From a virus (lineage: Duplodnaviria > Heunggongvirae > Uroviricota > Caudoviricetes): a stretch of DNA of 30,566 bases. Positions 1 through 17,096 of the stretch are shown piece after piece (the first letter of the stretch is position 1; every line of letters starts with the position of its first letter). The notes beneath the pieces are model-generated. The model was not told the origin of the DNA. It did no database searches and saw only the letters and a list, made by a program, of their open reading frames with translations. The translations under genes were made by a program, and so were the position numbers. The DNA is taken from the IMG/VR virus record IMGVR_UViG_2609459826_000004, positions 1-30,566 of that record, one strand, 5' to 3'.

Positions 1-1194
1 ATGATCACCGACACAAAGCTCAGGAAGGCGCTCGGCAAGAAAAGAGATGATATCGAGATTATTTCTGATTCGCACGGGCTCAACGCCAGAATCAGCCAGG
101 CCGGAAAAATATCATTTTTCTATCGGTATCGCTGGGCCGGTAAAGCGGTAAAACTCAATGTTGGTGATTATCCTGCAATGAGTATCACCCAGGCAAGAGA
201 GCGTCGCCAACAATTCAGAAACTGGTTAACTGAGGGACTGGATCCGCGAGAGCAGGTGAAGCTGGATAAGCAGACCCGACAGGAAGCGATGTCCGTTGCC
301 GAAGCGTTCAATTACTGGATTGAAAGGCACTGTATCGCTAACGGGCTAGTTAAAGTCGATTACTATCGCCAGGTGTTTGAGAAACATATCGCCGAACCGA
401 TGAAGAATGTCAAAGTCGATAACACAGCGAAAATGCACTGGATCAACGTCTTCGATTCTATAGAAAGCAGGGTGATGGCTCATTACATGCTTTCGCTGTG
501 CAAACGGGCGTTTAGGTTCTGCGTTAACAGAAGTGTGATCGCCTCAAACCCACTCGAGGGATTACTGCCATCTGATGTCGGGCAAAAGCCTAAAAAGAGA
601 ACTCGCAGGATGGACGATGACGATCTGCGCAAAATCTATCAGTGGTTGAAAAGCCATATGTCGATAGAGTCCGTTTTCCTGGTGAAATTTATTATGCTTA
701 CCGGATGCCGTACGGCTGAGATTCGACTTAGTGAGAGATCATGGTTTCGATTGGATGATAATGAGTGGGTCGTGCCTGCGGGCAGTTATAAAACTCGGGT
801 ACATATTAGAAGGGGACTCTCAGACGCCGCCGTTAACCTGGTCAGAAATCACCTCAAGAAAATAAACACCAATCACCTGGTGACTTCACAACGTAAAATT
901 GATGGCGGGATCAAAGATTCGCCCGTTCATTCACCTGTGGCATCCAATTACGCCCGTTCTATTTGGAATGGAACAGGTATGGCAGAGTGGTCGCTTCATG
1001 ATATGAGGCGGACGATAGCCACAAATCTCTCTGAGTTAGGTTGCCCGCCGCACGTAATTGAAAAGCTGCTCGGGCATCAGATGGTGGGGGTTATGGCGCA
1101 TTACAACCTTCATGACTATATCGATGATCAGAAACACTGGCTCCGCGTTTGGCAGAGCCATCTTGAAGAGATCATCGGAGAGCCCTTCAGTTAA
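1..1194 (+). CDS. int: Tyrosine-recombinase integrase, P4-type
   Basis: 397-aa ORF. N-terminal arm-binding signature ([10 protein letters not shown]...[10 protein letters not shown]) typical of P4-family integrases; C-terminal HDMRRT...LLGHQ...MAHY region fits the tyrosine-recombinase catalytic core. Lies at the prophage edge, overlapping the convergent xis-like gene by 4 nt. Confidence 0.85.
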
Positions 1195-1433
1195 TTTATC
1201 TTCTTTTTATCCTCCCACTCTTTGATTGACTCAGAGCGCCAGCGGTTAGGGTTGCCGGGCCAGTCAGGGGGTGGGAACGGGCATACGAAGCCCCGAGGCA
1301 TTGTGTCTGCACTTTGCCATGACCAAAGGGTTTTGCGTGAAATTTTGTAGCGACTGGTCAGGTCTGACGTTACCAAAATATCATCCATAGCTCTCTCCAG
1401 TTGCCCGTTCGGGCCATTCAAAATCTTTTTCAA
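1191..1433 (-). CDS. AlpA/Xis-family excisionase-like HTH protein
   Basis: 80-aa ORF next to int. The pattern ...RKTLWSW...FPPP...NRWR.SEI.EWE resembles AlpA/excisionase-family small DNA-binding proteins. Functional call is from position plus this motif. Confidence 0.55.
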
Positions 1434-1672
1434 CCAATCTGCCCGGGCAGGGAGCGGAGACGGCGCATGCCGGTCATCGCTGTGGCCACGTAGCTCGCCT
1501 TTCGGTTCACCACCTCCACCCAGACTTTCACGCCTTCAACCTTCACCGTATAAGTCTCTTTCATCTTGCTTCGCCCATAGTCGCCATATGTTTGCAAGTG
1601 AGCTGCCAGCGCGATGTCGCATGCTTGGCGAGCTAAAGGTGATTGCTTACTTCCTCGATTGATCAGTCGCAT
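1430..1672 (-). CDS. Hypothetical early-left protein
   Basis: 80-aa ORF, 4-nt overlap with the xis-like gene (translational coupling), same strand as the early-left operon. Confidence 0.4.
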   Translation of the reverse strand: MRLINRGSKQSPLARQACDIALAAHLQTYGDYGRSKMKETYTVKVEGVKVWVEVVNRKASYVATAMTGMRRLRSLPGQIG

Positions 1673-1710
1673 ATAATCTCCTTGAGGGAGGGTTACCCCT
1701 CCCGGTCTCG

Positions 1711-2829
1711 TCAGGCCACGTATTCCGGTTTCATATCCGCCAGGGTGATGCTGAATTGATCGTGCAGTTCATCGCCTAAGTGACGCTTTGAAGATGCAAG
1801 CATGCGCTCGGCTTCAGCGAACCGTTCGGCTGCATGCGGCTCGTCGGGCTGGGGCAGGGATTTAATAGCCTCCTCAACCTTGTTGCGTGCATCCACTAGG
1901 TAATAACGCTTTACGGCTTTGTTTTTCAGCTCGGTGAATAGTGCGGATCCCAGCGTAGCTTTCGCCGTTTCAATGTCGGCACGCAGCGATTTGGCGCTAT
2001 CCACGTCCTGAGCAGATTCGATGCGTTCGCGGAAATCATCGGCAAGAGAGTCGACATTTACCGACGATTCCTGTGCGCTTTGCGTGGTTGTGACGGTGTC
2101 ACCTGAGATATCAGCCAGGCTAACGCGTTGCGGCGTTGGGTTGATCTCTTTTTCTGTGCGCTGTTCAATCTCATCAGGGGTGTACACACCAAGAACAACT
2201 GCAGGGCAATATAGGCGCGCCCAGTATTTGAGTGCCAGATAAGCGATCTGCTGTTTCGGGTTTGATACCCAAAGTGGAGAATTACGTGTGATTACGCTGG
2301 AGAGGAAAACAGGCTCTCCCCAGGTGATATCACTTTCACCGCGAATAACGGCACCTACCCGTACCGACAGTCCTTGTTCATCAGCACTTTCCCAACCGCG
2401 TACCATTTCTTTCTTGTCGTACGTCCCGCCACCTTTCGCAGGCTTTTTAACGGTTATCTCGCGGCTGCTGGCACATTTCGACCAGTCGCCCTCGTACTCA
2501 TAGTGAAAGCGGCCAACGATGGCGTTTGAGCTGGAGATCACCGCATTAACCAGTTGCGCTTCGTATCCCAGGACACCGTTAACCAGGTGCGTCTTTTGCG
2601 CCACGGCGTAAGGGTTCATACCCCACTGCATCGCCTGCATGATGATGGCCATGCAGTCTGCCGGATTGCCGCGGAGGTGCTCAGGCACCGTTACGGCTGC
2701 CTGTGCCATCAACCCGGCGACAGACTGAAGCTGGGTTAAAGCCTGCACGTTGAAAATGGCATTGCTGGCTGAGATCGTGTTTGGAGTCTGCTGTTCAGCG
2801 GTTACGATATTCGTGTTTTCCATCATCAT
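1711..2829 (-). CDS. Single-strand annealing recombinase, RecT/Redbeta superfamily
   Basis: 372-aa ORF directly downstream of recE (recE stop 2835, SD-like AAGGGGA, then three consecutive ATGs at 2821-2829). Contains AMQWGMNPY and NPKQQIAYLALKYWARL segments resembling lambda Bet (ANQYGLNPW / HPKRMLRHKAMIQCARL) as I recall it. The exact start among the three ATGs is uncertain. Confidence 0.7.
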   Translation of the reverse strand: MMMENTNIVTAEQQTPNTISASNAIFNVQALTQLQSVAGLMAQAAVTVPEHLRGNPADCMAIIMQAMQWGMNPYAVAQKTHLVNGVLGYEAQLVNAVISSSNAIVGRFHYEYEGDWSKCASSREITVKKPAKGGGTYDKKEMVRGWESADEQGLSVRVGAVIRGESDITWGEPVFLSSVITRNSPLWVSNPKQQIAYLALKYWARLYCPAVVLGVYTPDEIEQRTEKEINPTPQRVSLADISGDTVTTTQSAQESSVNVDSLADDFRERIESAQDVDSAKSLRADIETAKATLGSALFTELKNKAVKRYYLVDARNKVEEAIKSLPQPDEPHAAERFAEAERMLASSKRHLGDELHDQFSITLADMKPEYVA

Positions 2830-2834
2830 TCCCC

Positions 2835-5732
2835 TTATGCCTGAGTACGCAGCGCTTCAAGGCGGCGCAGGTCGAAGTCGTTCAGTTCGTCGGTGTAGTC
2901 AGCAGTGATTGGCGCTGGCCATTCACCTGTGTCGAATCCGGTTGCGATATTGCGCATCGCTTTGCGGTACTCGAGCATACCCAGCTCCAGTAGTTCAGCG
3001 GATGCCTCGATGATGGCGATCCAGTGGTAGTTCTCGTCTTTGTTGACGAAAATCCAGAAGAACTGATCCAGCGCTGCGGTTTCGCAGTACATAGCCGCGC
3101 TCAGGTGATAATCACGTTCAATAATTTCCCGGTGTAGCCTGGCGCGCAGGCTTTCCTGCTTAACATTCCACATGCTGATGGTTTTCAGGTCTGCACCTAT
3201 ACGCACGCCATCCAGGTCGATCTCAAGGTCAGGGCGCACACGAACTTCCAAGCCCGTCTCCTCGTCAAAACCAAAGTAGCTCACCTCAACGGCTCGGCTA
3301 GGGGGGGTCAGCAGCATGCCGGCGGTCGGGTGTGCCAGAAGCGCTTTTTGAATATTCAGCGCGGTGCTCAGCTGCTGGCGGGTGACCAGCACTTTTCCTT
3401 CCGGGTTATCGCGCCAGGCATCCAGCAGTTCGTCGGCAAATACGGCATCTGGTTTGACTGCCTTCACGGCCTGGATCATGTCTGCTTTGGTACCGGACAC
3501 TTTCAGTGGTGCCGGTTTCTGTGCTTCCTGAGCCACAAGGTCAGGGTTGATGATTGCCAACTGCTCCAGCAGCGCGTCACGGCTGCCGCTGGTTTTAACC
3601 GGCGGCGGCAGGGTGGCGTTGTACTCTTTAATGCATGCCTTCATTGCCGTCGCCGTCTGCTTCTGGTCACCATCAATACGCTGGAAGTCAGCTGGCAGCG
3701 CCATATAGTTCTGTGCCGTTTCTTCCAGGTTAGCGCCAAGCGGAACCTGCGGCGGCAGGGTGGCGTTGTACTCTTCCAGTAACACCTTGATGTCGTCGGC
3801 AGACAGCAGCGCCGGCAGGCTGGCATTGTGCTCATCGATAAAGGCGCGCAGGGTCGCGGCCGTTGTGAATGCGCCTTCAGGGATCACCGGTTCAACGCTG
3901 AATTCTGCGTCCAGTAGTTCAGGCTGCAACGCCAGCGCATGCACCAAGTTGCCCATGTCCAGCACCGCTGAGCGCTCTTTGACGATGGTTTTCTCTACGT
4001 GGCGCGCATTGAAGTACATCAGCGAAACGCGCGCATCTTTCACCTGGGTTGAGCTGATGCCGTTGGCGGCGTGGTAAACCTCGTTTGGCAGCCCTTCATA
4101 GCGGCCTGGCTCGAAATAAGCGGGATAAACAACAGCTGGTTCGTCAGATTGCGCTTCTGGCTCGGTTTGTGCTGCAACTGGTTCGGTTTGGCTTACAGAA
4201 TCGCTATTTTTGGCGACAGAATCCGTATTCTGGTCTACATCGTCCTTCTGGCTGGTATCTGACTCTTCACCAGACTCCAGACTGCTTTCGCCTGGCTGTA
4301 CTTCATCACCAGCTTGTTTTTCATCACTGACAGTTTCTTGAACCTGCACATTGCTGGTGGTCTCCGTAGCCTTTTTCGTGCCATGAGTTGCTGAGTTCTG
4401 CAGCAAAGCCGTAACGTCGAATATTCCGTTGCCGACATTTTTAACCAGTTCTTGTTCGACTTTCTGCGGTTGTGCTGCCGCTTCCTCTGCGCGGCGGCGT
4501 GCTCCTTCTTCACGCACGCGTTGCAGGTTCTCTTCGTGAGTGCAGAAGGATTTGCGCGGAGACTCCTTACCTTCAGGTTGGGGAATTTCCTGTGCTGCGG
4601 GTTCAGCCTCATGCAACGGCAATAACTCGACCGCGGAATTGAACGCGGCTGTCATGGTCTGGTTAACAAATTCCAGGTGAGCGACAGGAGTTAAATGAAT
4701 ATTTTCCGGTGCGATACGTACCAGGTTAAAAATAGCCGTGCGGTTAACACCCAGAACGCCTGGCTGATTGCGCAGGATGTTGCTCCATGATTTCCATGGT
4801 TCTTCTTTTTTGGTCACGATTTCTTTAGCGCGACGAAGAATGCTGCCCGGGATCTCGAAGTGGTTGAAGTCCATAGGCAGAAGGGCACACGCAATCTCTA
4901 AATCGAGAGTGTCCAGTGTGTGGTGTGCGTCAGGTCCACGGTCAGTGACGTAACCGCCGTCGGCATTAGTGCCGGAATCAGTACGCTGCACACTACTGAT
5001 GCGATTACCGGCGGCCCATTCGCGAACGAGGATACCGCGGTCGATGTGATCTGTAGCGAACCACAATTTCAAAAACTGGATTAAGGTTGCGAGTTCAGGG
5101 ATTTTTCCATCGACAGGGAAGACTTTCTTAACGGCATTCACGACTTTATGAATATCGTGCTCAATGGCTTTTTTGAATGCTTCCACATTCTCAGCTGCCA
5201 GCAGCAGGTTCTGGACGTAGCTGTTATCCACATCCAGCTCGAGTCCCTGAATAATTTTCTTTTGCTCAGAATCGATGTGATAAACGTATTCATCAGAGAT
5301 GAACTGAGCCAAGATACGCTGGCGCAAGGATAGGGTGGCGACAGTGATCAACTGCGGCTGTTCTGCCTGCTGGGATTCGTCTGCATGGCCGGTTTCACCA
5401 TCAACGACATTGTCATCAGCCTGGTGGTTTTCTTCCTGCGCCGCGTTATCAGCTTTCAATTTCACATTCCAGGTGCGCTGGTCTTCGGCCAGTTCGTAAC
5501 GATCACACCAGGTGAAATCAACTTCACCTTCTTCTGGCAGGTCATCAACAACCGGGAAGTCAGTGCGAATTGGTTTGGCGTAGTCCTTGCCGCGGCCGGT
5601 TTCGATGCCAGCATCTTCCAGCGCAACGTCCAGCATCAGGTTGGCGCGAGCCTCGGTTTTAGCAGTGAACCAGACCACTGCATCTTGCTTTCCGGATTTC
5701 TGAGTGGCTTTAACCACATTAAAGAATTCCAT
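2835..5732 (-). CDS. recE: Exodeoxyribonuclease VIII (RecE-like) 5'-3' dsDNA exonuclease
   Basis: 965-aa ORF. N-terminal segment IRTDFPVVDDLPEEGEVDFTWCDRYEL closely matches the E. coli Rac RecE N-terminus as I recall it ([26 protein letters not shown]). Acidic low-complexity linker, C-terminal nuclease-sized domain, GAGGA RBS 6 nt before the ATG. Confidence 0.8.
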   Translation of the reverse strand: MEFFNVVKATQKSGKQDAVVWFTAKTEARANLMLDVALEDAGIETGRGKDYAKPIRTDFPVVDDLPEEGEVDFTWCDRYELAEDQRTWNVKLKADNAAQEENHQADDNVVDGETGHADESQQAEQPQLITVATLSLRQRILAQFISDEYVYHIDSEQKKIIQGLELDVDNSYVQNLLLAAENVEAFKKAIEHDIHKVVNAVKKVFPVDGKIPELATLIQFLKLWFATDHIDRGILVREWAAGNRISSVQRTDSGTNADGGYVTDRGPDAHHTLDTLDLEIACALLPMDFNHFEIPGSILRRAKEIVTKKEEPWKSWSNILRNQPGVLGVNRTAIFNLVRIAPENIHLTPVAHLEFVNQTMTAAFNSAVELLPLHEAEPAAQEIPQPEGKESPRKSFCTHEENLQRVREEGARRRAEEAAAQPQKVEQELVKNVGNGIFDVTALLQNSATHGTKKATETTSNVQVQETVSDEKQAGDEVQPGESSLESGEESDTSQKDDVDQNTDSVAKNSDSVSQTEPVAAQTEPEAQSDEPAVVYPAYFEPGRYEGLPNEVYHAANGISSTQVKDARVSLMYFNARHVEKTIVKERSAVLDMGNLVHALALQPELLDAEFSVEPVIPEGAFTTAATLRAFIDEHNASLPALLSADDIKVLLEEYNATLPPQVPLGANLEETAQNYMALPADFQRIDGDQKQTATAMKACIKEYNATLPPPVKTSGSRDALLEQLAIINPDLVAQEAQKPAPLKVSGTKADMIQAVKAVKPDAVFADELLDAWRDNPEGKVLVTRQQLSTALNIQKALLAHPTAGMLLTPPSRAVEVSYFGFDEETGLEVRVRPDLEIDLDGVRIGADLKTISMWNVKQESLRARLHREIIERDYHLSAAMYCETAALDQFFWIFVNKDENYHWIAIIEASAELLELGMLEYRKAMRNIATGFDTGEWPAPITADYTDELNDFDLRRLEALRTQA
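3597..3775. repeat. Intragenic 32-bp direct repeat (2 copies, 1 mismatch) inside recE
   Basis: aacc[g/t]gcggcggcagggtggcgttgtactctt at 3597-3628 and 3744-3775, 147 bp apart (in frame), with a degenerate third copy near 3811-3833. Encodes repeated E(E/K)YNATLPP peptide units. Confidence 0.6.
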
Positions 5733-5872
5733 GTGAGATCCTCATTTTTGGGTGTTAGAATCCCCGGACCATTGATAGCGCCCATTGGGTTAACTTTGGT
5801 TTTAATGTTGTTTCCGGTGTAACTTTGGTCGGTGAGGCCGGACATGGCGGGCCCACTTCGGTGGGCTTTCGC

Positions 5873-6160
5873 TTAACTGACGGCTACGATCGCCTCATTC
5901 ATAAAATCTTGCTTGTATGTACGGTAGGTTCCCCAGCCGGCGTAATCGCTATCGCTGATTTTGAGTACCAGCAAGCTGATCTCCTCAATGGCGCAGTGCG
6001 GGCAATCAAACTTGCCAAGCACATAGCCACCGTCGAGAATGACTGTTGTTTCACCGTTTGTAGTTGAGTGAATAACGCCTGATACTTTCTTCTCGCAGTT
6101 GAATGCAGCCACTTCTTTATTCACTGCTTTCAGGTTCATTTCGATTTTTACGATTTCCAT
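5873..6160 (-). CDS. Hypothetical early-left protein
   Basis: 95-aa ORF upstream of recE on the same strand; GGAG RBS 6 nt before the ATG. Confidence 0.5.
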   Translation of the reverse strand: MEIVKIEMNLKAVNKEVAAFNCEKKVSGVIHSTTNGETTVILDGGYVLGKFDCPHCAIEEISLLVLKISDSDYAGWGTYRTYKQDFMNEAIVAVS

Positions 6161-6245
6161 AAAATCTCCAGTTGTTAAATTAAGGGTGTAAGAAGCCGCG
6201 CCAAATTAATGGCGAATTTTTCATTTCATATTTCAGGACTGCTAT

Positions 6246-6404
6246 TTAACTTTCGTGCGCCATCTGGTCGTATTCAGCGCATTGCTTAGAGCAATATTCT
6301 TTTTCTTTCTGTGCCAGTTGCGAACCGTTGAGATAGAGCAAGGTGCTCTTTACTTCTGCGCCTTCTTCAACAGGCTTGTGGCAATAACCACATTCTTTTT
6401 TCAT
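6246..6404 (-). CDS. Small Cys-rich protein (putative zinc-binding), 52 aa
   Basis: Below the 60-aa cutoff of the ORF track. ATG at 6402-6404 (minus) preceded by AAGGA at 6-nt spacing. Translation MKKECGYCHKPVEEGAEVKSTLLYLNGSQLAQKEKEYCSKQCAEYDQMAHES has CxxC and CxxxC pairs. Confidence 0.35.
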   Translation of the reverse strand: MKKECGYCHKPVEEGAEVKSTLLYLNGSQLAQKEKEYCSKQCAEYDQMAHES

Positions 6405-6437
6405 CACCTGTCCTTAAAGTGTTTTGGCAACTCTCCG

Positions 6438-6644
6438 TTAATGGCTGAGGCCATTCCCCAGACCGTTCAGATAAACTTCAACCAGCAAATCCTTGGTGTA
6501 AGTCATTTCTACGCCGCGATGCAGATACAAACGTCCGCGAGCGTTAGCTGATGCCGTCCAGGTTGAGTCTTTGTGTTTGACGAGCATCCCCGGCTGAACT
6601 GCGCCGCGGTTTACTGTCTGTGTACCGTAGTGCTGGTTTACCAT
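6438..6644 (-). CDS. Hypothetical early-left protein
   Basis: 68-aa ORF; GAGGA RBS 5 nt upstream of the ATG; in the leftward operon. Confidence 0.45.
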   Translation of the reverse strand: MVNQHYGTQTVNRGAVQPGMLVKHKDSTWTASANARGRLYLHRGVEMTYTKDLLVEVYLNGLGNGLSH

Positions 6645-6778
6645 GATTTCCTCTTGGCCTTATCGCGGCGAACGGAACGGTTAATACAAGACTTCAACGC
6701 ATTTATTCAGTGTTTCAATGGGCGGTGGATGGCCGCCGGTTGTCATAACTTGAGCCACTCGTAAATGACTCCAGGTAT

Positions 6779-6802
6779 GAAAAAGCCGCTGGTTAGGCGG
6801 CT
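6779..6802 (-). terminator. Intrinsic terminator after the first leftward gene
   Basis: On the minus strand, hairpin AGCCGC / GCGGCT (6784-6802, 7-nt loop) followed by a U-run (complement of A6779-A6784). Overlaps the stop codon of the 6801-7097 gene. Confidence 0.5.
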
Positions 6803-7097
6803 ATTGAGGTTCGCGCGGCTTGTGGTCGAATCGGTGCCACCCGTCAGTTAATTCAAATGGAGCATAACTTTCCCGGCGCTCAGCGAACCCAAGCTCAACA
6901 GACAGAGCGTGCAGCTCATGCCGACGCTTAATCTGTTCCATCGCAATCCAGTCAGCATCGGCATTGCGCTTTTGAGCTTGCTTCGGCGACAGGTCTAAAC
7001 TGTTTATTTCACTTAGTTTCTGCTGACGCTTGATGTCCTGTTTCATATTGCGAAGCGCATTTATCATTGAGTCGATGCGCTTGATGTCGTCGATCAT
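6801..7097 (-). CDS. Hypothetical protein, first gene of the leftward early operon
   Basis: Track ORF extends to 7193, but the internal ATG at 7095-7097 has a GAGGG RBS; gives a 98-aa charged, coiled-coil-like protein (MIDDIKRIDSMINALRNMKQ...). Followed by an intrinsic terminator. Confidence 0.5.
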   Translation of the reverse strand: MIDDIKRIDSMINALRNMKQDIKRQQKLSEINSLDLSPKQAQKRNADADWIAMEQIKRRHELHALSVELGFAERRESYAPFELTDGWHRFDHKPREPQ

Positions 7098-7325
7098 CCC
7101 CTTACCCTCTGTCGTTACCCGCTGATGCGGGAGAAATGCTTTGTGGTGCAGCGCCGGGTGCTTATCTTCCGGTTGCCGTCGATGCAGCTGCAATTCACTG
7201 CACTACAAAACATTCCAGTTATTGCCGGGGTATTTATCCGCGCCCGGCGCGCGCTTTCCCGCTATTCCCCAACAGCAAGAAATCGCTTACTCTTTAAGCT
7301 CCCCAACAGTAGAAAGGATATGTTC

Positions 7326-7547
7326 ATGCAAACCATGCGGACCGTGTGCCCTGACTGCGGAAGTGAGATGTTCAACCAGCCCGATGATTTTGACTTTGAG
7401 ACAAATTTCACCGGCGTCAGTTGTGCTGACTGTGGTCGCGAAATCACTAAGGACGATGTTGTCAATCAGGCCACGGACACGGTCAAAAAACAGATCGACG
7501 ACATGCTCAGGAATTCCCTGAAAGGAGCTGGCTGGAAGTTCAAGTAA
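7326..7547 (+). CDS. Small zinc-ribbon protein (two CxxC pairs)
   Basis: MQTMRTVCPDCGSEMF...VSCADCGREIT has two CxxC motifs about 20 residues apart. AAGGA lies 7 nt upstream of the ATG at 7326. Hand-counted third-position GC is about 47/73 in this frame versus about 36/73 for the antisense ORF 7287-7634. Coding strand still ambiguous. Confidence 0.45.
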   Translation: MQTMRTVCPDCGSEMFNQPDDFDFETNFTGVSCADCGREITKDDVVNQATDTVKKQIDDMLRNSLKGAGWKFK

Positions 7548-7825
7548 CTTTAAAAGCTCCCCGGTCTGGGTAAGCACTTCGCTGGCGTCTACATTGAGCA
7601 GTAGTGGCGCCATTTTTTTATCTGACATATACACCCCTCTGATTGTTTACCGTCAGCCCCTCGCAAAGAGCTGCTGGTAAATCGTTTAGCCATAATTGCC
7701 GCTCTTCCTGAGCCCGCCTATGGTCCGACGCATGGTTTACTGTCGCGCCGTTCGACTGACCGAATCTCCACTTCGCCGCTGGCTAACTTCGCTCAGCTGT
7801 CGATGTTTCGTTTCGATGGGGTAAA

Positions 7826-7900
7826 TTTAGCGTTATGCTAAATTATGCGCAATAGCAAAATGCTAAATTGTTGAATGGTTTTATTTAGCGTATTGATTAA
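7826..7900. promoter_or_regulatory. Left operator region (OL-like), 2-3 repressor-binding palindromes
   Basis: TTTAGCGTTATGCTAAA (7826-7842), AATAGCAAAATGCTAAA (7851-7867), weaker TTTAGCGTATTGATTAA (7884-7900). The first is the exact reverse complement of the OR site at 8729-8745. Confidence 0.6.
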
Positions 7901-7937
7901 TAAGCGATTAAAAATTTACAGCGAAGGAATTCGGGAC

Positions 7938-7965
7938 GTAAAAAAGCCCGCGCGATGGCGGGCTT
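7938..7965 (-). terminator. Intrinsic terminator downstream of the repressor gene
   Basis: Hairpin AAGCCCGC / GCGGGCTT (7944-7965, loop GCGATG) followed on the minus strand by a U-run (complement of A7941-A7945), just after the cI-like stop at 7984. Confidence 0.5.
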
Positions 7966-7983
7966 GAGGGGTTTTGCGTGAGG

Positions 7984-8661
7984 TTATGGGATGTTTAGTA
8001 TTTTGGCATCAACCACAACGCCGATGATTTTGCAGTTTCCATTAATTTCTAGCATTGGATATGCGGGGTTAAGGGGCTTTAGGAAGCGTCTGCCGGCATC
8101 GATTACAAGCTTCTTAAAGGTCGCTTCGTTATCGCCTTCTAGCTTCGCGACAACCAGCTTTCCGTTGCGCGGCTCGACTTCAGGATCAACAAGTATCGCT
8201 GCTCCCTCGGGTATGCTCAGTCCAGCCGGGGAGGTCATAGAATCCCCTTTAACGTCCAGCCAGAATGAATCTTCTGAGCAGTCAACAGTCGTGTCATACC
8301 AGCGATCTATCGCTCTTCGGTGATAAGGTTCTACAGCTTCCATCCATTGCCCCGCGCTTACCCAGCTGATTACAGGATAACTTCCTTTTGTCTCGTTCAG
8401 TCCTCGAAATGCAACGTTCGAAGGTTCTTCACTGGCGTGTAAAACATCCATCCAGCCAAAAGGCAGATCAAGCGCAGTTTCAATTTTGCGAGCCATCTTA
8501 TCGCCGATATTGCGATGAGGGTTTGGTCCCAGTAGCTGGCTAAGCGCAGCCGGACTTGTCTCGATGAGCTCGGCAAACTGCGCTTTGGTCATTCCAGACT
8601 CGTGCTGACGCTTCTCGTACAGCGCTTCCAGGTTGGCTTTTCTGATTTCTTTATTTTCCAT
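7984..8661 (-). CDS. cI: cI-like phage repressor (N-terminal HTH, C-terminal LexA/S24 peptidase domain)
   Basis: Start placed at the internal ATG 8659-8661 (MENKEIRK...), since the longer track ORF reads through the operator region. N-terminal HTH-like segment (MTKAQFAELIETSPAALSQL), C-terminal S24 signature with GDSM serine and downstream lysine (VVAKLEGD). Divergent from the Cro-like gene across OR. Confidence 0.85.
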   Translation of the reverse strand: MENKEIRKANLEALYEKRQHESGMTKAQFAELIETSPAALSQLLGPNPHRNIGDKMARKIETALDLPFGWMDVLHASEEPSNVAFRGLNETKGSYPVISWVSAGQWMEAVEPYHRRAIDRWYDTTVDCSEDSFWLDVKGDSMTSPAGLSIPEGAAILVDPEVEPRNGKLVVAKLEGDNEATFKKLVIDAGRRFLKPLNPAYPMLEINGNCKIIGVVVDAKILNIP

Positions 8662-8679
8662 ACCTGCATTGTTACTGCT

Positions 8680-8745
8680 TTTAGCAAAATGATAAATGTG
8701 CAAATTGCTAAATGATGCTTGCGTAGTATTTAGCATAACGCTAAA
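8680..8745. promoter_or_regulatory. Right operator region (OR-like) with divergent PR/PRM
   Basis: TTTAGCAAAATGATAAA (8680-8696) and TTTAGCATAACGCTAAA (8729-8745; perfect TTTAGC/GCTAAA arms). Candidate PR -35 TTGCGT (8718-8723) and -10 TAAACT (8742-8747) overlap the second site. 116-bp gap between the cI start and the cro start. Confidence 0.6.
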
Positions 8746-8777
8746 CTCCAAATCAAACGACTCACCCGGAGACACCA

Positions 8778-9011
8778 ATGAGCACTGAACTACACCGCTG
8801 GCGCAAGGCCGCCACTACCGACGAATGGGCGCAGCTCGCAAAGTTGGCTAACACGACGCCAGGTTACCTGGACCAGATCGCCTACGGAAATCGCCGGGCA
8901 TCTCCAGAAATGGCATCTGCTATCGAGAAAGGCACGAAGAATTTTCACCGCCAGGCTCCGGTCCTAAAAGAAAGCCTGGTATTCGCATCGCCGCGTGATA
9001 CTGCGGCCTAA
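8778..9011 (+). CDS. cro: Cro-like small HTH regulator
   Basis: 77-aa ORF divergent from the repressor; GGAG RBS 6 nt upstream. HTH-like segment DEWAQLAKLANTTPGYLDQIAYGNRRAS. Confidence 0.65.
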   Translation: MSTELHRWRKAATTDEWAQLAKLANTTPGYLDQIAYGNRRASPEMASAIEKGTKNFHRQAPVLKESLVFASPRDTAA

Positions 9012-9839: not shown

Positions 9840-11000
9840 ATGGGCGTCGTTAGGTTAGCAGATCGGAACGGAGGCGCGTATTCCTCCAGGAGCTCTCGCG
9901 TGGATAACAGGAAGCAGGGCCACTTTGCCTTGTTCAGAAGCGCTCTCACGGCACCGTGGTCAAAGGATACGGCTAAGTTAGCCCTGTGGGTGCGCCTGCT
10001 TGGTGAAGCTCGCTTTAAGCCGGGCAGCGTTGAATTTGCTGGCCGAGAATGGATGCTTGGAGCGGGGCAGTTAGTCACCACCACCGCCATCATGGCAAGA
10101 AAACTTCGCGATCAGGACGGCAATGAGAAGAGTGCAAAAGCCGTTGAGCGAATGCTGAATTTCTTCTGCCGGGAAGGGATGTTAAGCACCAAAGGAACAC
10201 CATTCGGAACCGTGATTACCATCACAAATTACTGTGAATATCAGGGCATTTCAGGCGTCGAAGGTAATGACGAACCACCCGTCGAGCCTAAACCCAGTGC
10301 TGGCGCGGTCTTGAAGCTTGTGCACGTCGAGGGGGGTGACGAACCACCCGTCGAACAGAACAAGAATGGAGTTAACAAGAATAATAAACCCCCCCTTACC
10401 CCCCAGGGGGAAAAATCGCTCGCTCAGGATGTGATGGATTACTTCAACGAGCTGACAGGAAGCCGCTGCGCTGCCTTAGCGCCTTTCGAAAAAGCGCTTA
10501 CCACCGTGAAGAGCAAAGACCAGTGCTACACCGCTGAAGAGCTGAAACTCGTTATCCGCTGGGCCCATGTGAACTGGGGTCACAGCTTCAAGCCAGAGAA
10601 CCTGTGCCGTATGACCCGCTTTGATGGATACCTGTCAGACGCCCTGATATGGGCAGATGGTCATGGCAGCAACCCGAAAGCCTGTCTGCACGAAGAGATC
10701 ATCAAGCTCTGGAATGAAAAATTCCCTTCGAAGGCCGTTTCGCTGCATGAGTGGAACCGCCGCCGTCCGGCCTATCGAGACCTGGAAGCTGTGTGGAACG
10801 GCAAAACCACCCAGGGCAACTGGCGAGAACTGAAGCACATGGGAATGGCCTTCGAGCTGATTAGCAAGTCTTCCCTGTTCGCCACCAGAGGCGATCAGCC
10901 ATGGCTGACACTCGACTGGATCCTGAATCCGAAGAACTGGGGATCTGTCTACGAGCAGGCCATCAACGAGCACCGTGAGCGCAAGGGAGTCAAAGCATGA
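9840..11000 (+). CDS. Replication initiation / replisome-organizer protein (lambda O-like role)
   Basis: 386-aa ORF with AGGAG RBS 9 nt upstream, followed with a 4-nt overlap by the DnaB-like helicase. Contains in-frame iteron-like repeats plus an AT-rich stretch (origin-within-gene arrangement); C-terminal region resembles the conserved phage replication-protein C-terminus. Confidence 0.7.
   Translation: MGVVRLADRNGGAYSSRSSRVDNRKQGHFALFRSALTAPWSKDTAKLALWVRLLGEARFKPGSVEFAGREWMLGAGQLVTTTAIMARKLRDQDGNEKSAKAVERMLNFFCREGMLSTKGTPFGTVITITNYCEYQGISGVEGNDEPPVEPKPSAGAVLKLVHVEGGDEPPVEQNKNGVNKNNKPPLTPQGEKSLAQDVMDYFNELTGSRCAALAPFEKALTTVKSKDQCYTAEELKLVIRWAHVNWGHSFKPENLCRMTRFDGYLSDALIWADGHGSNPKACLHEEIIKLWNEKFPSKAVSLHEWNRRRPAYRDLEAVWNGKTTQGNWRELKHMGMAFELISKSSLFATRGDQPWLTLDWILNPKNWGSVYEQAINEHRERKGVKA
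10256..10354. repeat. Iteron-like direct repeats (candidate replication origin) inside the initiator gene
   Basis: 30-bp units cgtcgaNNNNNNtgacgaaccacccgtcga at 10256-10285 and 10325-10354, with an 18-bp perfect core and 69-bp period. Followed by the AT-rich run 10355-10390. Confidence 0.5.
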
Positions 11001-12370
11001 GCCGTTTTATCGATTTGTACGTTGAGCAGGCCGTCATCGGCGGGATCATGCTCGCAGCGGGCCGCACAGACGGCGTTGACATGGCGACTGACGCGATTGA
11101 GGGGCTGACTGAGGACCACTTCACAGCAACGCCTCACAAGGTGGCTCTGCGGTCCTACAAACGCCTCAACGAGTCCGGGGAGAAGATAGACCTGCTGACG
11201 TTGACCAGCGACCTTGAACGGCTTGGCGCGCTGGAAAGTGCCGGGGGATTCGCTTACCTGGCTGAATGCAGCAAAAACACACCGTCGTTCGCGAACCTTG
11301 CCTCGTACTGCGAAAAGTTGCGGGAAATGCATCTCGGCCGCCGGATGACCCTGGCGCTACAGGTAGGGATCCAGAAGCTGTCCGAACCATCCAGTGAGGG
11401 TATCGCTGACATCATCGGCAACATACAGGCGGATATCTCTGGCATCGAGCACAACACCGACTACGGCACCGAGCACATCACCACCGGGATCGACATGTCC
11501 CTCGAGACTATCCAGTCGATTATCAGCGGCGATATCTGGAAGCACAAAACCGAGCTGGGCATGGCAACCATCGACAGCGCATTCGGCGGGTTCAACAACA
11601 CCGATTTCATCGTTGTCGGCGGGCGCCCTGGCATGGGGAAAACTATGTTCAGCACCACCGTGACCGAGACAGTCGGCCTGAAAAACAAAAAGCCGGTGCT
11701 GTTCTTCAGTCTCGAGATGCCAGTGGAACAAATCTCTGAGCGAGTCGCGTTCCACCGGGCCCGGGTGAGCAAAGAGGATTTACTCAGCAAGCAGAGCGGC
11801 GTGATGGATGGTGCCTGGGGAAAGGTCGGCCACTGCATGAAGGATTTCATCGAAGCCCCGATCTATATCAACGACAAGCCATCCCTCAGCGTTCATCAGG
11901 TGCGAGCGGAAGCCAGGCGAATGAGCAAGAAACTGGGTGGACTTGGTGTGGTCATTGTCGATTACCTCCAGAAGATGCGCATGTCTGACCCTGAGAACAT
12001 GAACCGCAGCGTAGGGGAGATCGCAACCGGCCTGAAAAACCTGGCGAAAGAGTTGCGTTGCCCGGTCATCGCACTGGCTCAGCTTAACCGTAAGGTCGAA
12101 GAACGTGCTAATAAGCGCCCGGTCGCAGCTGACCTCCGCGAGTCCGGTGTTATCGAGCAGGAAGCCGATGTGATTTTCATGATCTACCGGGATGAGAAAT
12201 ACAACCCGAACACAGAACTGAAAGGCATCACCGAAATCATCTGTGTGAAGTCCCGCCATGCGCCGGGGGCAGAAAAGACCTACCACTTCAGCAGCCGCTA
12301 CTCAGGCCTGGACCCGGTAGATTTCACCTACAGCGGCCAGATGCAACAGGAGGCTGACTATGAGTGCTAA
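10997..12370 (+). CDS. dnaB: Replicative DNA helicase, DnaB family (phage-encoded)
   Basis: 457-aa ORF. Walker A GGRPGMGKT, then LFFSLEM, VIVDYLQKM and LAQLNRKVEER...ESGVIEQEADVIFMIYRDE motifs, characteristic of DnaB-type hexameric helicases. ATGA overlap with the upstream initiator gene. Confidence 0.9.
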   Translation: MSRFIDLYVEQAVIGGIMLAAGRTDGVDMATDAIEGLTEDHFTATPHKVALRSYKRLNESGEKIDLLTLTSDLERLGALESAGGFAYLAECSKNTPSFANLASYCEKLREMHLGRRMTLALQVGIQKLSEPSSEGIADIIGNIQADISGIEHNTDYGTEHITTGIDMSLETIQSIISGDIWKHKTELGMATIDSAFGGFNNTDFIVVGGRPGMGKTMFSTTVTETVGLKNKKPVLFFSLEMPVEQISERVAFHRARVSKEDLLSKQSGVMDGAWGKVGHCMKDFIEAPIYINDKPSLSVHQVRAEARRMSKKLGGLGVVIVDYLQKMRMSDPENMNRSVGEIATGLKNLAKELRCPVIALAQLNRKVEERANKRPVAADLRESGVIEQEADVIFMIYRDEKYNPNTELKGITEIICVKSRHAPGAEKTYHFSSRYSGLDPVDFTYSGQMQQEADYEC

Positions 12371-14847: not shown

Positions 14848-15060
14848 CCCATTCGACGCATAACTAAACGTCAAGCAACGTTTGATAAAACACTATCAAC
14901 GAGCCATAATAAATCTGCCAGCGGCCTGAACAACCCTGGCAGACTTCTTCGCATTTAAGGGGACTTAAATGCGACCACAATATGAACTTCTCACCTTGTC
15001 ACAGATGCAGAAATGCACCTGCGATTTTCTGTATTCTGCGTTACCTCTCGGAGGTGGCGT

Positions 15061-15498
15061 ATGAAACAGCCTGTTTTCTACCTCCGCGACGAACGCGTTC
15101 GCGATAACCTCATCGACTACATCAGGAAGCTGCCCGTTAACGACGCTCTGCCGCTCGTGGTGAAGTTTTCTGAGGCTGACCGCACTCTCGCCCAAAACGA
15201 CCTCTTCCACGCTCTCTGTGGCGATACAGCGAAGCAATTGCAATGGGCTGGCAAGTCGCGCGACCTCGCTTCATGGAAAGTCCTGTATGTCTCAGGCCAT
15301 GCCATTGCCACCGGTAAGCCTGGTGAAGTGGTGCCGGGTCTGGAAGGGGAGTTCTGCGCCATCCGGGAAAGCACTGCGAAGATGGGCATCCGTCGCATGA
15401 CCAGTCTCATCGAATACAGCCAGGCATTTGCTGTGCAAAACGGCGTGCAACTCCGTGAAGTTCGCTACTCAGGTGATTACTTCGGGAGGGTTGCGTAA
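15061..15498 (+). CDS. ninB: NinB (Orf-family recombination protein)
   Basis: Start at internal ATG 15061 with GGAGG 6 nt upstream. The segment LAQNDLFHALCGDTAKQLQWAGKSRDLASWKVL parallels lambda NinB (LDQNRKLWACLGDVSRQVEWHGRWLDAESWKCV) as I recall it. Confidence 0.8.
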   Translation: MKQPVFYLRDERVRDNLIDYIRKLPVNDALPLVVKFSEADRTLAQNDLFHALCGDTAKQLQWAGKSRDLASWKVLYVSGHAIATGKPGEVVPGLEGEFCAIRESTAKMGIRRMTSLIEYSQAFAVQNGVQLREVRYSGDYFGRVA

Positions 15499-15668
15499 TG
15501 GCTAGCCCTCTCGCTCGCGTCATCACAAACGAAATCTTCCGCGTTCCGGTGCGCCGCAAGCGTAAGCCAGCGATTAAGCCGTCCGACATTCCGACCCTGA
15601 AAGATTACACCGCCCGCCTGGTGGATCAGAAATGGCTGCGTCTCGCGGCTCGGAGGAATCATGCGTAA
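15498..15668 (+). CDS. Small basic hypothetical protein, 56 aa
   Basis: Below the track cutoff. ATG overlaps the ninB stop (TAATG); GGGAGGG RBS 7 nt upstream; overlaps the ninG start by 8 nt. Confidence 0.4.
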   Translation: MASPLARVITNEIFRVPVRRKRKPAIKPSDIPTLKDYTARLVDQKWLRLAARRNHA

Positions 15669-16299
15669 ACCAACCCGTCGAACCTGCAAGGTCTGCAAAG
15701 AGAAATTCACCGCTACCTTCGACAACGTCTGGTGGTGCTGTCCTGAGCATGGCGCCATCTACGCGCTGGATTTGAGGGCAAAGCAGAAGGTGAAAGAGGC
15801 CGCTAAGCGTATCAGTGAACAGAAAGAGGCAGAGAAGGCAGGGCGAAAACGCCGACAAGAAAAGCGCGAGTCACTAAAGTCTAAATCCCAGTGGGATAAG
15901 GAGGCTCAATCGGCCTTCAACCGCTACATCCGGATCCGGGACGAGGGGAAAGAATGCGTCAGCTGCGGCAATCCGCTCCTCGGCAAATGCAATTACCTCA
16001 CTGGTAGCGCCATTGATGCCAGTCATTACCGTTCGCGCGGAGCTGCATCACACCTCAAATTCAACGTGTTTAACGTCCACTCAGCCTGCACCCGCTGCAA
16101 CCGCCAGTTGAGCGGCAATGCCGTTGAATACCGCATTCACCTGATTGAACGCATTGGCCAGGATCGCGTAGAGCGCCTTGAGGCTGATAACGAGCCGCGC
16201 CGGTTCGATATTCCCTACCTGCAGCGCATCAAATCCATATTCACCCGCAGAGCCCGCGCGCTGGAGAAGCGCCGTGCTCGCCATCAGGAGGCCGCATGA
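15661..16299 (+). CDS. ninG: NinG / Rap (Holliday-junction resolvase-like)
   Basis: 212 aa. N-terminus MRKPTRRTCKVCKEKFTATFDNVWWCCPEHG parallels lambda NinG ([31 protein letters not shown]) as I recall it; also the Cys-rich motif CVSCGNP...HY...CTRCN. Confidence 0.85.
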   Translation: MRKPTRRTCKVCKEKFTATFDNVWWCCPEHGAIYALDLRAKQKVKEAAKRISEQKEAEKAGRKRRQEKRESLKSKSQWDKEAQSAFNRYIRIRDEGKECVSCGNPLLGKCNYLTGSAIDASHYRSRGAASHLKFNVFNVHSACTRCNRQLSGNAVEYRIHLIERIGQDRVERLEADNEPRRFDIPYLQRIKSIFTRRARALEKRRARHQEAA

Positions 16300-16598: not shown

Positions 16599-17096
16599 AT
16601 GAAACTGGAATTAACCAACGACCAGCATCAATGGGTAGACCAGTGGCTCCAGTTGTGGGGCGCATGGTGCCAGACCGGCAAGATTGATAAAGCGATGATC
16701 AACATGATTGCCAGATTCATGGCTACCGTCGAGCCCCAGCAAGCATCACGGCCGGTATGTAGTGATGATGACGGAATGCTCATTGATGCTGTCATTCGCC
16801 ACTACCTGAAGAATGTGGATGAAAATGCCTGGCGGGTTATCTTCGCCTACTATGTCTGCAACTCCAGCGAGATCCGAATTGCATCATGGCAGCATGCAGT
16901 AAGTAAGCCTCGCCTTATGAAGACGCGTGGCGGCAATCAGTACAAACACCCAAGCATCTCGACAATCCGTAGAGAGGTGAAGCAAATCATCAATGCTTCA
17001 TTGTTCTGTTTATACCAACCGCTTCAAAATGCGTTTAACGATCGCGAAAATGTGAGGAAAATTGCAAATAAATCACACAACGTGCTTGCAATTTAA
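16599..17096 (+). CDS. Q: Late-gene antiterminator Q (Q-type family)
   Basis: 165 aa. Motifs WLQLWGAW...SRPVCSDDDGMLID...FAYYV resemble Q-type antiterminators of lambdoid prophages. Sits immediately upstream of a terminator/tRNA/lysis cluster. Confidence 0.75.
   Translation: MKLELTNDQHQWVDQWLQLWGAWCQTGKIDKAMINMIARFMATVEPQQASRPVCSDDDGMLIDAVIRHYLKNVDENAWRVIFAYYVCNSSEIRIASWQHAVSKPRLMKTRGGNQYKHPSISTIRREVKQIINASLFCLYQPLQNAFNDRENVRKIANKSHNVLAI

Follow-up and report, generated by a model that had tools for sequence, protein, structure and literature searches.

A RecE-like exonuclease encoded beside an annealase that resembles lambda Bet raises the question of whether two phage recombination systems have recently been joined, or whether the two genes form an established pair. 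This question arose at positions 1711-5732 of a 30,566-nucleotide (nt) stretch of virus DNA (Caudoviricetes; IMG/VR record IMGVR_UViG_2609459826_000004), the whole of which we call the window. The initial annotation had described the two genes as a mosaic exo/annealase pair and a repeat within recE as a recombination-prone, length-variable region. We instead read the region, with a probability of roughly 0.8, as the early-left-operon recombination module of an HK225/mEp237/Gifsy-type lambdoid Escherichia coli prophage, in which a RecE-family exonuclease with a repeat-enlarged rim loop accompanies an annealase of the EHAP1-like branch. The genes, their junction and their domains are listed below in window coordinates, with protein positions in amino acids (aa).

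1711-2829, minus strand: annealase gene, 372 aa, RecT/Redbeta superfamily, enterohemolysin/Gifsy-RecT branch (Pfam RecT PF03837; phrog_561)
2134-2772, minus strand: annealase N-terminal DNA-annealing domain, aa 20-232
1714-2076, minus strand: annealase C-terminal helical domain, aa 252-372, a proposed partner-docking module (five-helix model)
2830-2834, minus strand: recE-annealase junction of 5 nt, where a GGGGA ribosome-binding site overlaps the recE stop
2835-5732, minus strand: recE-like exonuclease gene, 965 aa (open reading frame (ORF); Pfam Exonuc_VIII and DUF3799; phrog_607)
4641-5732, minus strand: N-terminal RecE-homology region, aa 1-364 (BLASTP to Rac RecE), exchanged and duplicated among relatives
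4128-4640, minus strand: acidic low-complexity linker, aa 365-535 (36 D+E, 16 S and 16 Q in 171 aa)
2838-4127, minus strand: C-terminal PD-(D/E)XK nuclease domain, aa 536-965 (aligned to Rac RecE 595-850 and PDB 3H4R)

We surveyed the pairing in about 30 genera, at 80 genome loci whose annealase identities spanned 45-95%. At 77 of these loci the ORF upstream of the annealase matched the window nuclease domain, and the gap between recE and the annealase gene was mostly 5-15 nt, with a few gaps of up to about 80 nt. A lambda-Exo-type partner upstream of the annealase was found at none of the 80 loci. Since the same pairing recurs in about 30 genera at 45-95% annealase identity, the pair is old and co-inherited. 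The mosaic inference in the initial annotation was wrong: annealases of this branch are the canonical partners of the RecE subtype found here, Gifsy recET included. A RecE beside a "Bet-like" annealase is thus the standard Gifsy-type module and not a fresh mosaic, although the misreading was a plausible one. Among complete E. coli genomes, 112 of 5426 carried the module.

The module itself is already known as recET of the Gifsy/HK225 type. Gifsy-1 and Gifsy-2 of Salmonella Typhimurium have the same gene order as the window (int, xis, DUF4060, annealase, recE), and the RecT and RecE proteins of Gifsy-2 are collinear with the window proteins at 71% and 66% identity, respectively, with the same EYNATLP repeat architecture. 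The window differs from Gifsy in its host, E. coli, and in the N-terminal and linker parts of RecE (48 gap positions). Still closer are two phages with the same flanking genes, both annotated as encoding RecE and RecT: mEp237 shares 99.5% nt identity over the first 3341 nt (window 1711-5051), and HK225 shares 94% over 98% of the region. Their RecE N-terminal part is mosaic, with an extra duplicated segment of 164 aa in HK225 and different first ~230 aa in mEp237. When derepressed by mutation, Gifsy recET suppresses recombination defects (PMC3121763). By analogy, the window genes would encode a RecE-family 5'-3' double-stranded DNA (dsDNA) exonuclease and, 5 nt downstream, a translationally coupled single-strand annealing protein, and the two would together promote recombination by single-strand annealing (exonuclease plus annealase), in keeping with the genetics of the orthologous Gifsy recET. 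The GGGGA site lying over the recE stop suggests the coupling, and a promoter and terminator scan between the two genes found no site above the shuffled expectation.

Family searches placed the exonuclease within RecE. Pfam Exonuc_VIII (PF06630) matched aa 4-176 at 112.3 bits (cut-off 25; Rac RecE, 327 bits), and the PD-(D/E)XK family DUF3799 (PF12684) matched aa 788-940 at 39.8-43.1 bits (cut-off 26). The NCBIfam RecE equivalog model NF007259 scored 490 bits, below its cut-off of 1269, which makes the protein a member of the RecE family but not an equivalog. By BLASTP, the N-terminal 364 aa aligned with Rac RecE aa 6-351 at 31% identity (E 8e-49), and the nuclease domain was 22-29% identical to that of Rac RecE. 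At these identities, the description "closely matches" given to the N-terminus on first inspection was too strong. Residues H598, D835, D848 and K850 aligned with RecE H652 and the PD...DxK motif, whose roles in the RecE active site are described in PMC11611040, and the motifs GNLVH, RPD and DLK were invariant among close relatives. Rac RecE has the same domain plan (N-terminal region, linker and C-terminal PD-DxK nuclease with the H, D, D and K residues), and the Rac locus likewise places an annealase gene immediately downstream and has xis, a ydaE-like gene and kil as operon neighbours. Besides the divergence of its nuclease domain, Rac RecE differs in its rim loop, which measures 34 aa against 174 aa in the window protein.

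RecE-like ORFs of the relatives measured 484-1340 aa. This spread is mostly due to a second part of RecE that varies in length, where the RecE proteins of HK225 (L003, 4125-7514) and E. coli CUWW10 (L005, 1986-5522) carry an insertion of 164 aa after about aa 88 (window ~5340-5470). This insertion is a diverged duplicate of the helical region next downstream (29% identity, E 6e-15). The acidic linker (aa 365-535) had no Pfam family match; at 4187-4229, Tandem Repeats Finder reported a 21-nt tandem repeat within it, with two copies at 81% matches that encode N(T/S)DSV(A/S)(K/Q) twice. Nearly all Salmonella homologues of the nuclease domain (P0144-P0240) were "partial" proteins that lay at contig ends and had steadily varying lengths, a pattern suggesting that Salmonella recE is interrupted in short-read assemblies, probably owing to the near-identical Gifsy-1 and Gifsy-2 copies.

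The repeats flagged in the initial annotation lie in a loop of the nuclease domain, with the following layout.

3381-3902, minus strand: loop of 174 aa built from repeats, aa 611-784, corresponding to the 34-aa loop 665-698 of Rac RecE
3597-3628, minus strand: 32-nt core, gene-distal copy, encoding EYNATLPPPV, aa 703-712
3744-3775, minus strand: 32-nt core, gene-proximal copy, encoding EYNATLPPQV, aa 654-663
3804-3835, minus strand: degenerate third copy, encoding EHNASLPAL, aa 634-642 (24/32 identical to the reference copy)

In a multiple alignment of Rac RecE with short and long relatives, aa 611-784 fell between the anchors FxVxP and GKxxxT, which in Rac RecE enclose residues 665-698 (34 aa). 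In Rac RecE, the 665-698 loops jut from the channel rim and presumably capture dsDNA; they are disordered without DNA and partly visible with it (PMC11611040). The shortest loops, in Buttiauxella and Providencia, consist of a single helix of each of two types, "xLKxFIxEYN" and "LKxTGxKxxLxxAIK". The window loop holds three copies of the former and two of the latter, together with one 49-aa spacer unit, and loops of other genomes have one unit more or fewer. Pfam SAP was the commonest weak match to the loop, found in 11 of 17 diverse homologues with a best E of 0.0018, and FANC_SAP, SAP_new25, Ish1 and Thymopoietin also matched weakly; all of these matches were below threshold. With moderate confidence, judging from these sequence comparisons, we regard the loop as a putative enlarged DNA-capturing arm made of SAP-like units. 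Modular helix-loop-helix units, weakly SAP-like, would enlarge the channel-rim loop corresponding to Rac residues 665-698, and the enlarged loop would probably act as a longer arm that captures the dsDNA end.

An unlikely but credible alternative is that the loop expansion is a tolerated, neutral insertion and that its resemblance to SAP is a chance effect of short amphipathic helices. The sub-threshold scores of every SAP match fit this explanation, as do the intact ORF of a natural allele with a single unit (described below) and the short forms of Buttiauxella and Providencia, which lack both 49-aa units. Against it, the unit architecture and length are kept across about 30 genera despite the divergence of the neighbouring gene (45-95%), the weak matches concentrate on one clan of DNA-binding helix-extended-helix motifs, and the homologous Rac loop is reported to be partly ordered with DNA (PMC11611040).

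The two 32-nt copies were identical at 31 of 32 positions, differing by one base, and were spaced 147 nt apart, with the third copy 60 nt further on. These coordinates were correct as first annotated, and the pair is far beyond chance: no such pair appeared in 200 shuffles, and the analytic expectation was 4e-11. The repeated peptides were also correctly identified, with EYNATLP at aa 654 and 703, but they had been assigned to the linker, which spans aa 365-535, whereas they lie in the nuclease domain. DNA similarity between the copies ended at the borders of the 32-nt core. Tandem Repeats Finder did not report a 147-nt period because the core alone is similar. Two other origins of the repeat were considered and rejected: a recent 147-nt tandem duplication in the window, as the DNA flanking the cores is unrelated, and a nucleotide-level signal such as an RNA structure or recoding site, as other lineages keep the peptide with only 27 of 32 nt alike. 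HK225 is an example of the latter, its cores being 27/32 alike compared with 31/32 in the window, and in Gifsy-2 the second core reads EYNVTLPAP, leaving its two cores less alike than those of the window.

We then compared repeat number in 58 complete E. coli genomes that hold window 3350-4050. In 54 of them the region was collinear and unchanged in length, and two gave partial matches. The remaining two differed by exactly one unit. E. coli CUWW10 had gained 147 nt and carried three cores at 147-nt spacing, E. coli O19:H7 730V1 had lost 147 nt and carried one core, and both kept an intact ORF with flanks 99.8-99.9% identical. For a measure across species, we took the distance between GNLVH and RVRPD in 58 genomes of different species. 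This distance was 236-238 aa in 53 of the 58, 186 aa in two, 288 aa in one, and 138 or 139 aa in two. The classes are steps of unit size, and the two-unit form is conserved across genera. Older variants were also present: P0135 has three 49-aa units that have diverged, and P0133 has a second copy of a "VKTSGSRDALLEQL" unit. The expected length variation is thus real, as 1-, 2- and 3-unit E. coli alleles exist and the repeat region is not invariant across relatives, but it is rare (2/58), and the region is mostly conserved in length.

Cores of the same genome shared lineage-specific changes, for example LPPQV/LPPPV in the window and LPAL/LPAQ in HK225. Core similarity was 0.673 within genomes and 0.634 between genomes over all positions, and 0.597 and 0.522, respectively, at third codon positions; the within-genome value was reached in none of 2000 permutations. 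This pattern points to gene conversion as the likely process keeping the cores alike. Both copy-number alleles belong to the lineage with the 31/32 core, which fits unequal recombination or slippage between cores. The 32-nt cores may thus occasionally mediate the in-frame gain or loss of one 147-nt (49-aa) unit.

A stronger interpretation makes the array a hypervariable locus of the contingency type, changing length often and thereby tuning or switching the function of RecE; this appears very unlikely. Alleles of one, two and three units among nearly identical E. coli prophages would be expected of such a locus, as would changes that are all in frame and signs of conversion between copies. However, the length differed in only 2 of 58 E. 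coli genomes, and the 236-238-aa spacing was kept in 53 of 58 species-level relatives. Furthermore, the locus has two copies of the 32-nt core and no long tandem array, and in other lineages the cores are 27/32 alike.

The identity of the annealase bears on the pairing. Pfam RecT PF03837 matched aa 39-228 (E 2.5e-36, 125.5 bits), but it also matched Rac RecT (189 bits) and lambda Bet (116 bits), so this model marks the superfamily and not RecT proper. The narrower NCBIfam models gave no match to the annealase at E<=10, either for TIGR00616 "rect" (Rac RecT, 416 bits) or for TIGR01913 bet_lambda (lambda Bet, 169.5 bits), and the annealase, Rac RecT and Bet fell into three separate PHROGs (561, 148 and 252). 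BLASTP found no similarity to Rac RecT (E 22) and 26% identity to Bet over 107 aa (E 2e-4). Likewise, hhalign aligned the annealase family with Bet over 150 columns (E 3.3e-5, probability 72%) and gave no alignment with RecT (E 0.58). The annealase-family hidden Markov model picked out the Bet motifs QYGLNPW and GIYDKDE, which correspond to QWGMNPY and GVYTPDE in the window annealase. Earlier suggestions that the annealase is nearer Bet than RecT are borne out by these searches, whereas an identity with Bet is not, given the failure of TIGR01913.

The family comprised 5246 representative clusters at E<=0.001, with members named "RecT family recombinase", "enterohemolysin" or "Gifsy-2 prophage RecT"; cluster members bearing either of the last two names were 72-88% identical to the annealase. 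PMC8093625, citing Iyer 2002, describes EHAP1-like proteins of E. coli and Salmonella as a subgroup of the RecT/Redbeta superfamily. Judged by these comparisons, the annealase is a RecT/Redbeta superfamily member that is neither RecT proper nor Bet; it would belong to an "enterohemolysin/EHAP1-like/Gifsy RecT" branch, somewhat nearer Redbeta. Annotation pipelines lump this third branch of the superfamily under "RecT".

AlphaFold with the family alignment gave a confident model (pLDDT, its per-residue confidence score, 90.3), in which an alpha/beta N-domain (aa 20-215) is connected by a disordered linker to a C-terminal domain of five helices (aa 252-371). Foldseek found no match, and searching PDB sequences with the annealase, by phmmer and by profile, was equally negative. 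Compared with lambda Red, the window pair shares the logic of exonuclease plus annealase, and the annealase N-domain has a Redbeta-like fold with weak sequence similarity. The pair differs from Red in that the exonuclease is of the RecE type, not the YqaJ/lambda-Exo type, and in the annealase C-terminal domain, which has about 120 aa and five helices, compared with residues 194-261 for the Redbeta C-terminal domain (PMC11611040). Pfam and PHROG scans recognised no gam homologue among the scanned ORFs upstream of recE.

Several observations touch the annealase gene itself. Its ORF opens with three consecutive ATG codons (window 2821-2829). Phage and RefSeq records annotate a shorter gene than the 372 aa here, of 1113 nt (370 aa) or, for HK225, 1116 nt, which implies a later start codon. 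The 633 positions of the phrog_561 profile were matched at 3-266 by the nuclease domain of Rac RecE and at 273-618 by the annealase. Some database proteins of 456-756 aa (P0242, P0246 and P0255) end in the C-terminal half of the annealase. Fused or mis-called nuclease-annealase ORFs therefore probably exist.

That the annealase is a canonical RecT, making the pair no different from Rac RecET, is highly improbable. The PF03837 score, the PGAP name "RecT family recombinase" and the use of RecT in phage records all favour it, but lambda Bet matches PF03837 as well. Rac RecT belongs to another branch and another PHROG, with no BLASTP or profile similarity to the window annealase, which does not cluster with it, leaves TIGR00616 unmatched, is 100 aa longer and has a distinct C-terminal domain.

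Two of the surveyed loci showed which parts of the module move together. At L081 (Pseudomonas lundensis, 5150-6924), the annealase gene follows a Rac-type gene of 273 aa that encodes the nuclease alone; the annealase N-domain shares 73% identity with that of the window and the annealase C-terminal domain is unrelated, a true mosaic at the domain level. At L087 (Salmonella enterica s1, 3092-7020), RecE combines an N-terminal region resembling that of Rac (E 5e-120) with a nuclease domain of the Gifsy type, and the annealase, C-terminus included, is also Gifsy-type. The second locus shows recombination inside recE between the N-terminal and nuclease parts. Wherever the Gifsy-type nuclease domain occurred, the annealase C-terminal domain was conserved, and in L081, where the nuclease is Rac-type, it was replaced. 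From these two loci it follows that the nuclease domain moves together with the C-terminal domain of the annealase and that the N-terminal part of RecE exchanges freely. Since the Redbeta C-terminal domain binds lambda Exo (PMC11611040), we infer that the annealase C-terminal helical domain is probably a partner-specific docking module. A recent joining of a Rac-type recE to a lambda-type bet gene is extremely improbable: although similarity to Bet, but none to Rac RecT, can be detected in the annealase, and modules are shuffled in this region (L081, L087), the same pairing holds in 77 of 80 genomes, the annealase fails the Bet model with about 26% identity to Bet over 107 aa, and the nuclease domain is a distinct subtype only 22-29% identical to Rac RecE.

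The Gifsy-type reading allows a broader proposal, which we consider doubtful. In this proposal, the loop would be a modular array of SAP-like end-capturing arms at the RecE ring rim, recombination at the 32-nt cores would set the loop length in 49-aa steps and thereby alter end capture or processivity, and a third orthogonal docking pair would be made up of the Gifsy-type nuclease domain and the C-terminal domain of the annealase. If true, that docking pair would be distinct from Rac RecE-RecT and lambda Exo-Bet and usable for recombineering.

A number of points weigh against the reading of the region given at the outset. The activity of the window pair should be taken as a prediction from sequence and from the Gifsy orthologues. 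The hhalign comparison set a profile of 126 annealase family members against single Bet and RecT sequences, not against profiles. The branch name depends in part on equating "enterohemolysin" with EHAP1. A single-sequence AlphaFold2 model of the nuclease domain reached a pLDDT of 35 and was unusable, so the position of the loop rests on the alignment to Rac RecE and on the loop description in the review. SAP PF02037 scored 14 bits on the window protein against a cut-off of 23.9. The CUWW10 and 730V1 copy-number alleles come entirely from assembled genomes, and genome-specific codon bias could share in the within-genome similarity of the cores.

Several aspects of the module are modestly new. 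The repeats sit at the presumed DNA-capturing rim loop of RecE, a loop that appears to have grown by duplication of weakly SAP-like units. The natural alleles of one, two and three units provide a ready series for probing the role of this loop. Finally, the type of nuclease domain changes in step with the C-terminal domain of the annealase, which helps in choosing matched pairs for recombineering.

The module lies in the left arm of a lambdoid prophage, with the following neighbours.

1-9000: left arm of the lambdoid prophage, with the integrase on the plus strand and the downstream genes on the minus strand
1-1194, plus strand: integrase
1191-1433, minus strand: excisionase
1430-1672, minus strand: DUF4060 protein
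5873-6644, minus strand: three small genes, including a YdaE-like gene and Kil
7984-8778: putative cI-like (repressor-like) ORF

A megablast search of window 5733-30566 against phage records returned 64 Synechococcus phage records among its matches, which is unexpected for an enterobacterial prophage. Elsewhere in the same prophage are a DnaB-like helicase (10997-12370) and a Q antiterminator (16599-17096), as well as two accessory recombination genes, encoding NinB, a lambda Orf-like recombination mediator (15013-15498), and NinG, a Rap-like nuclease (15661-16299).

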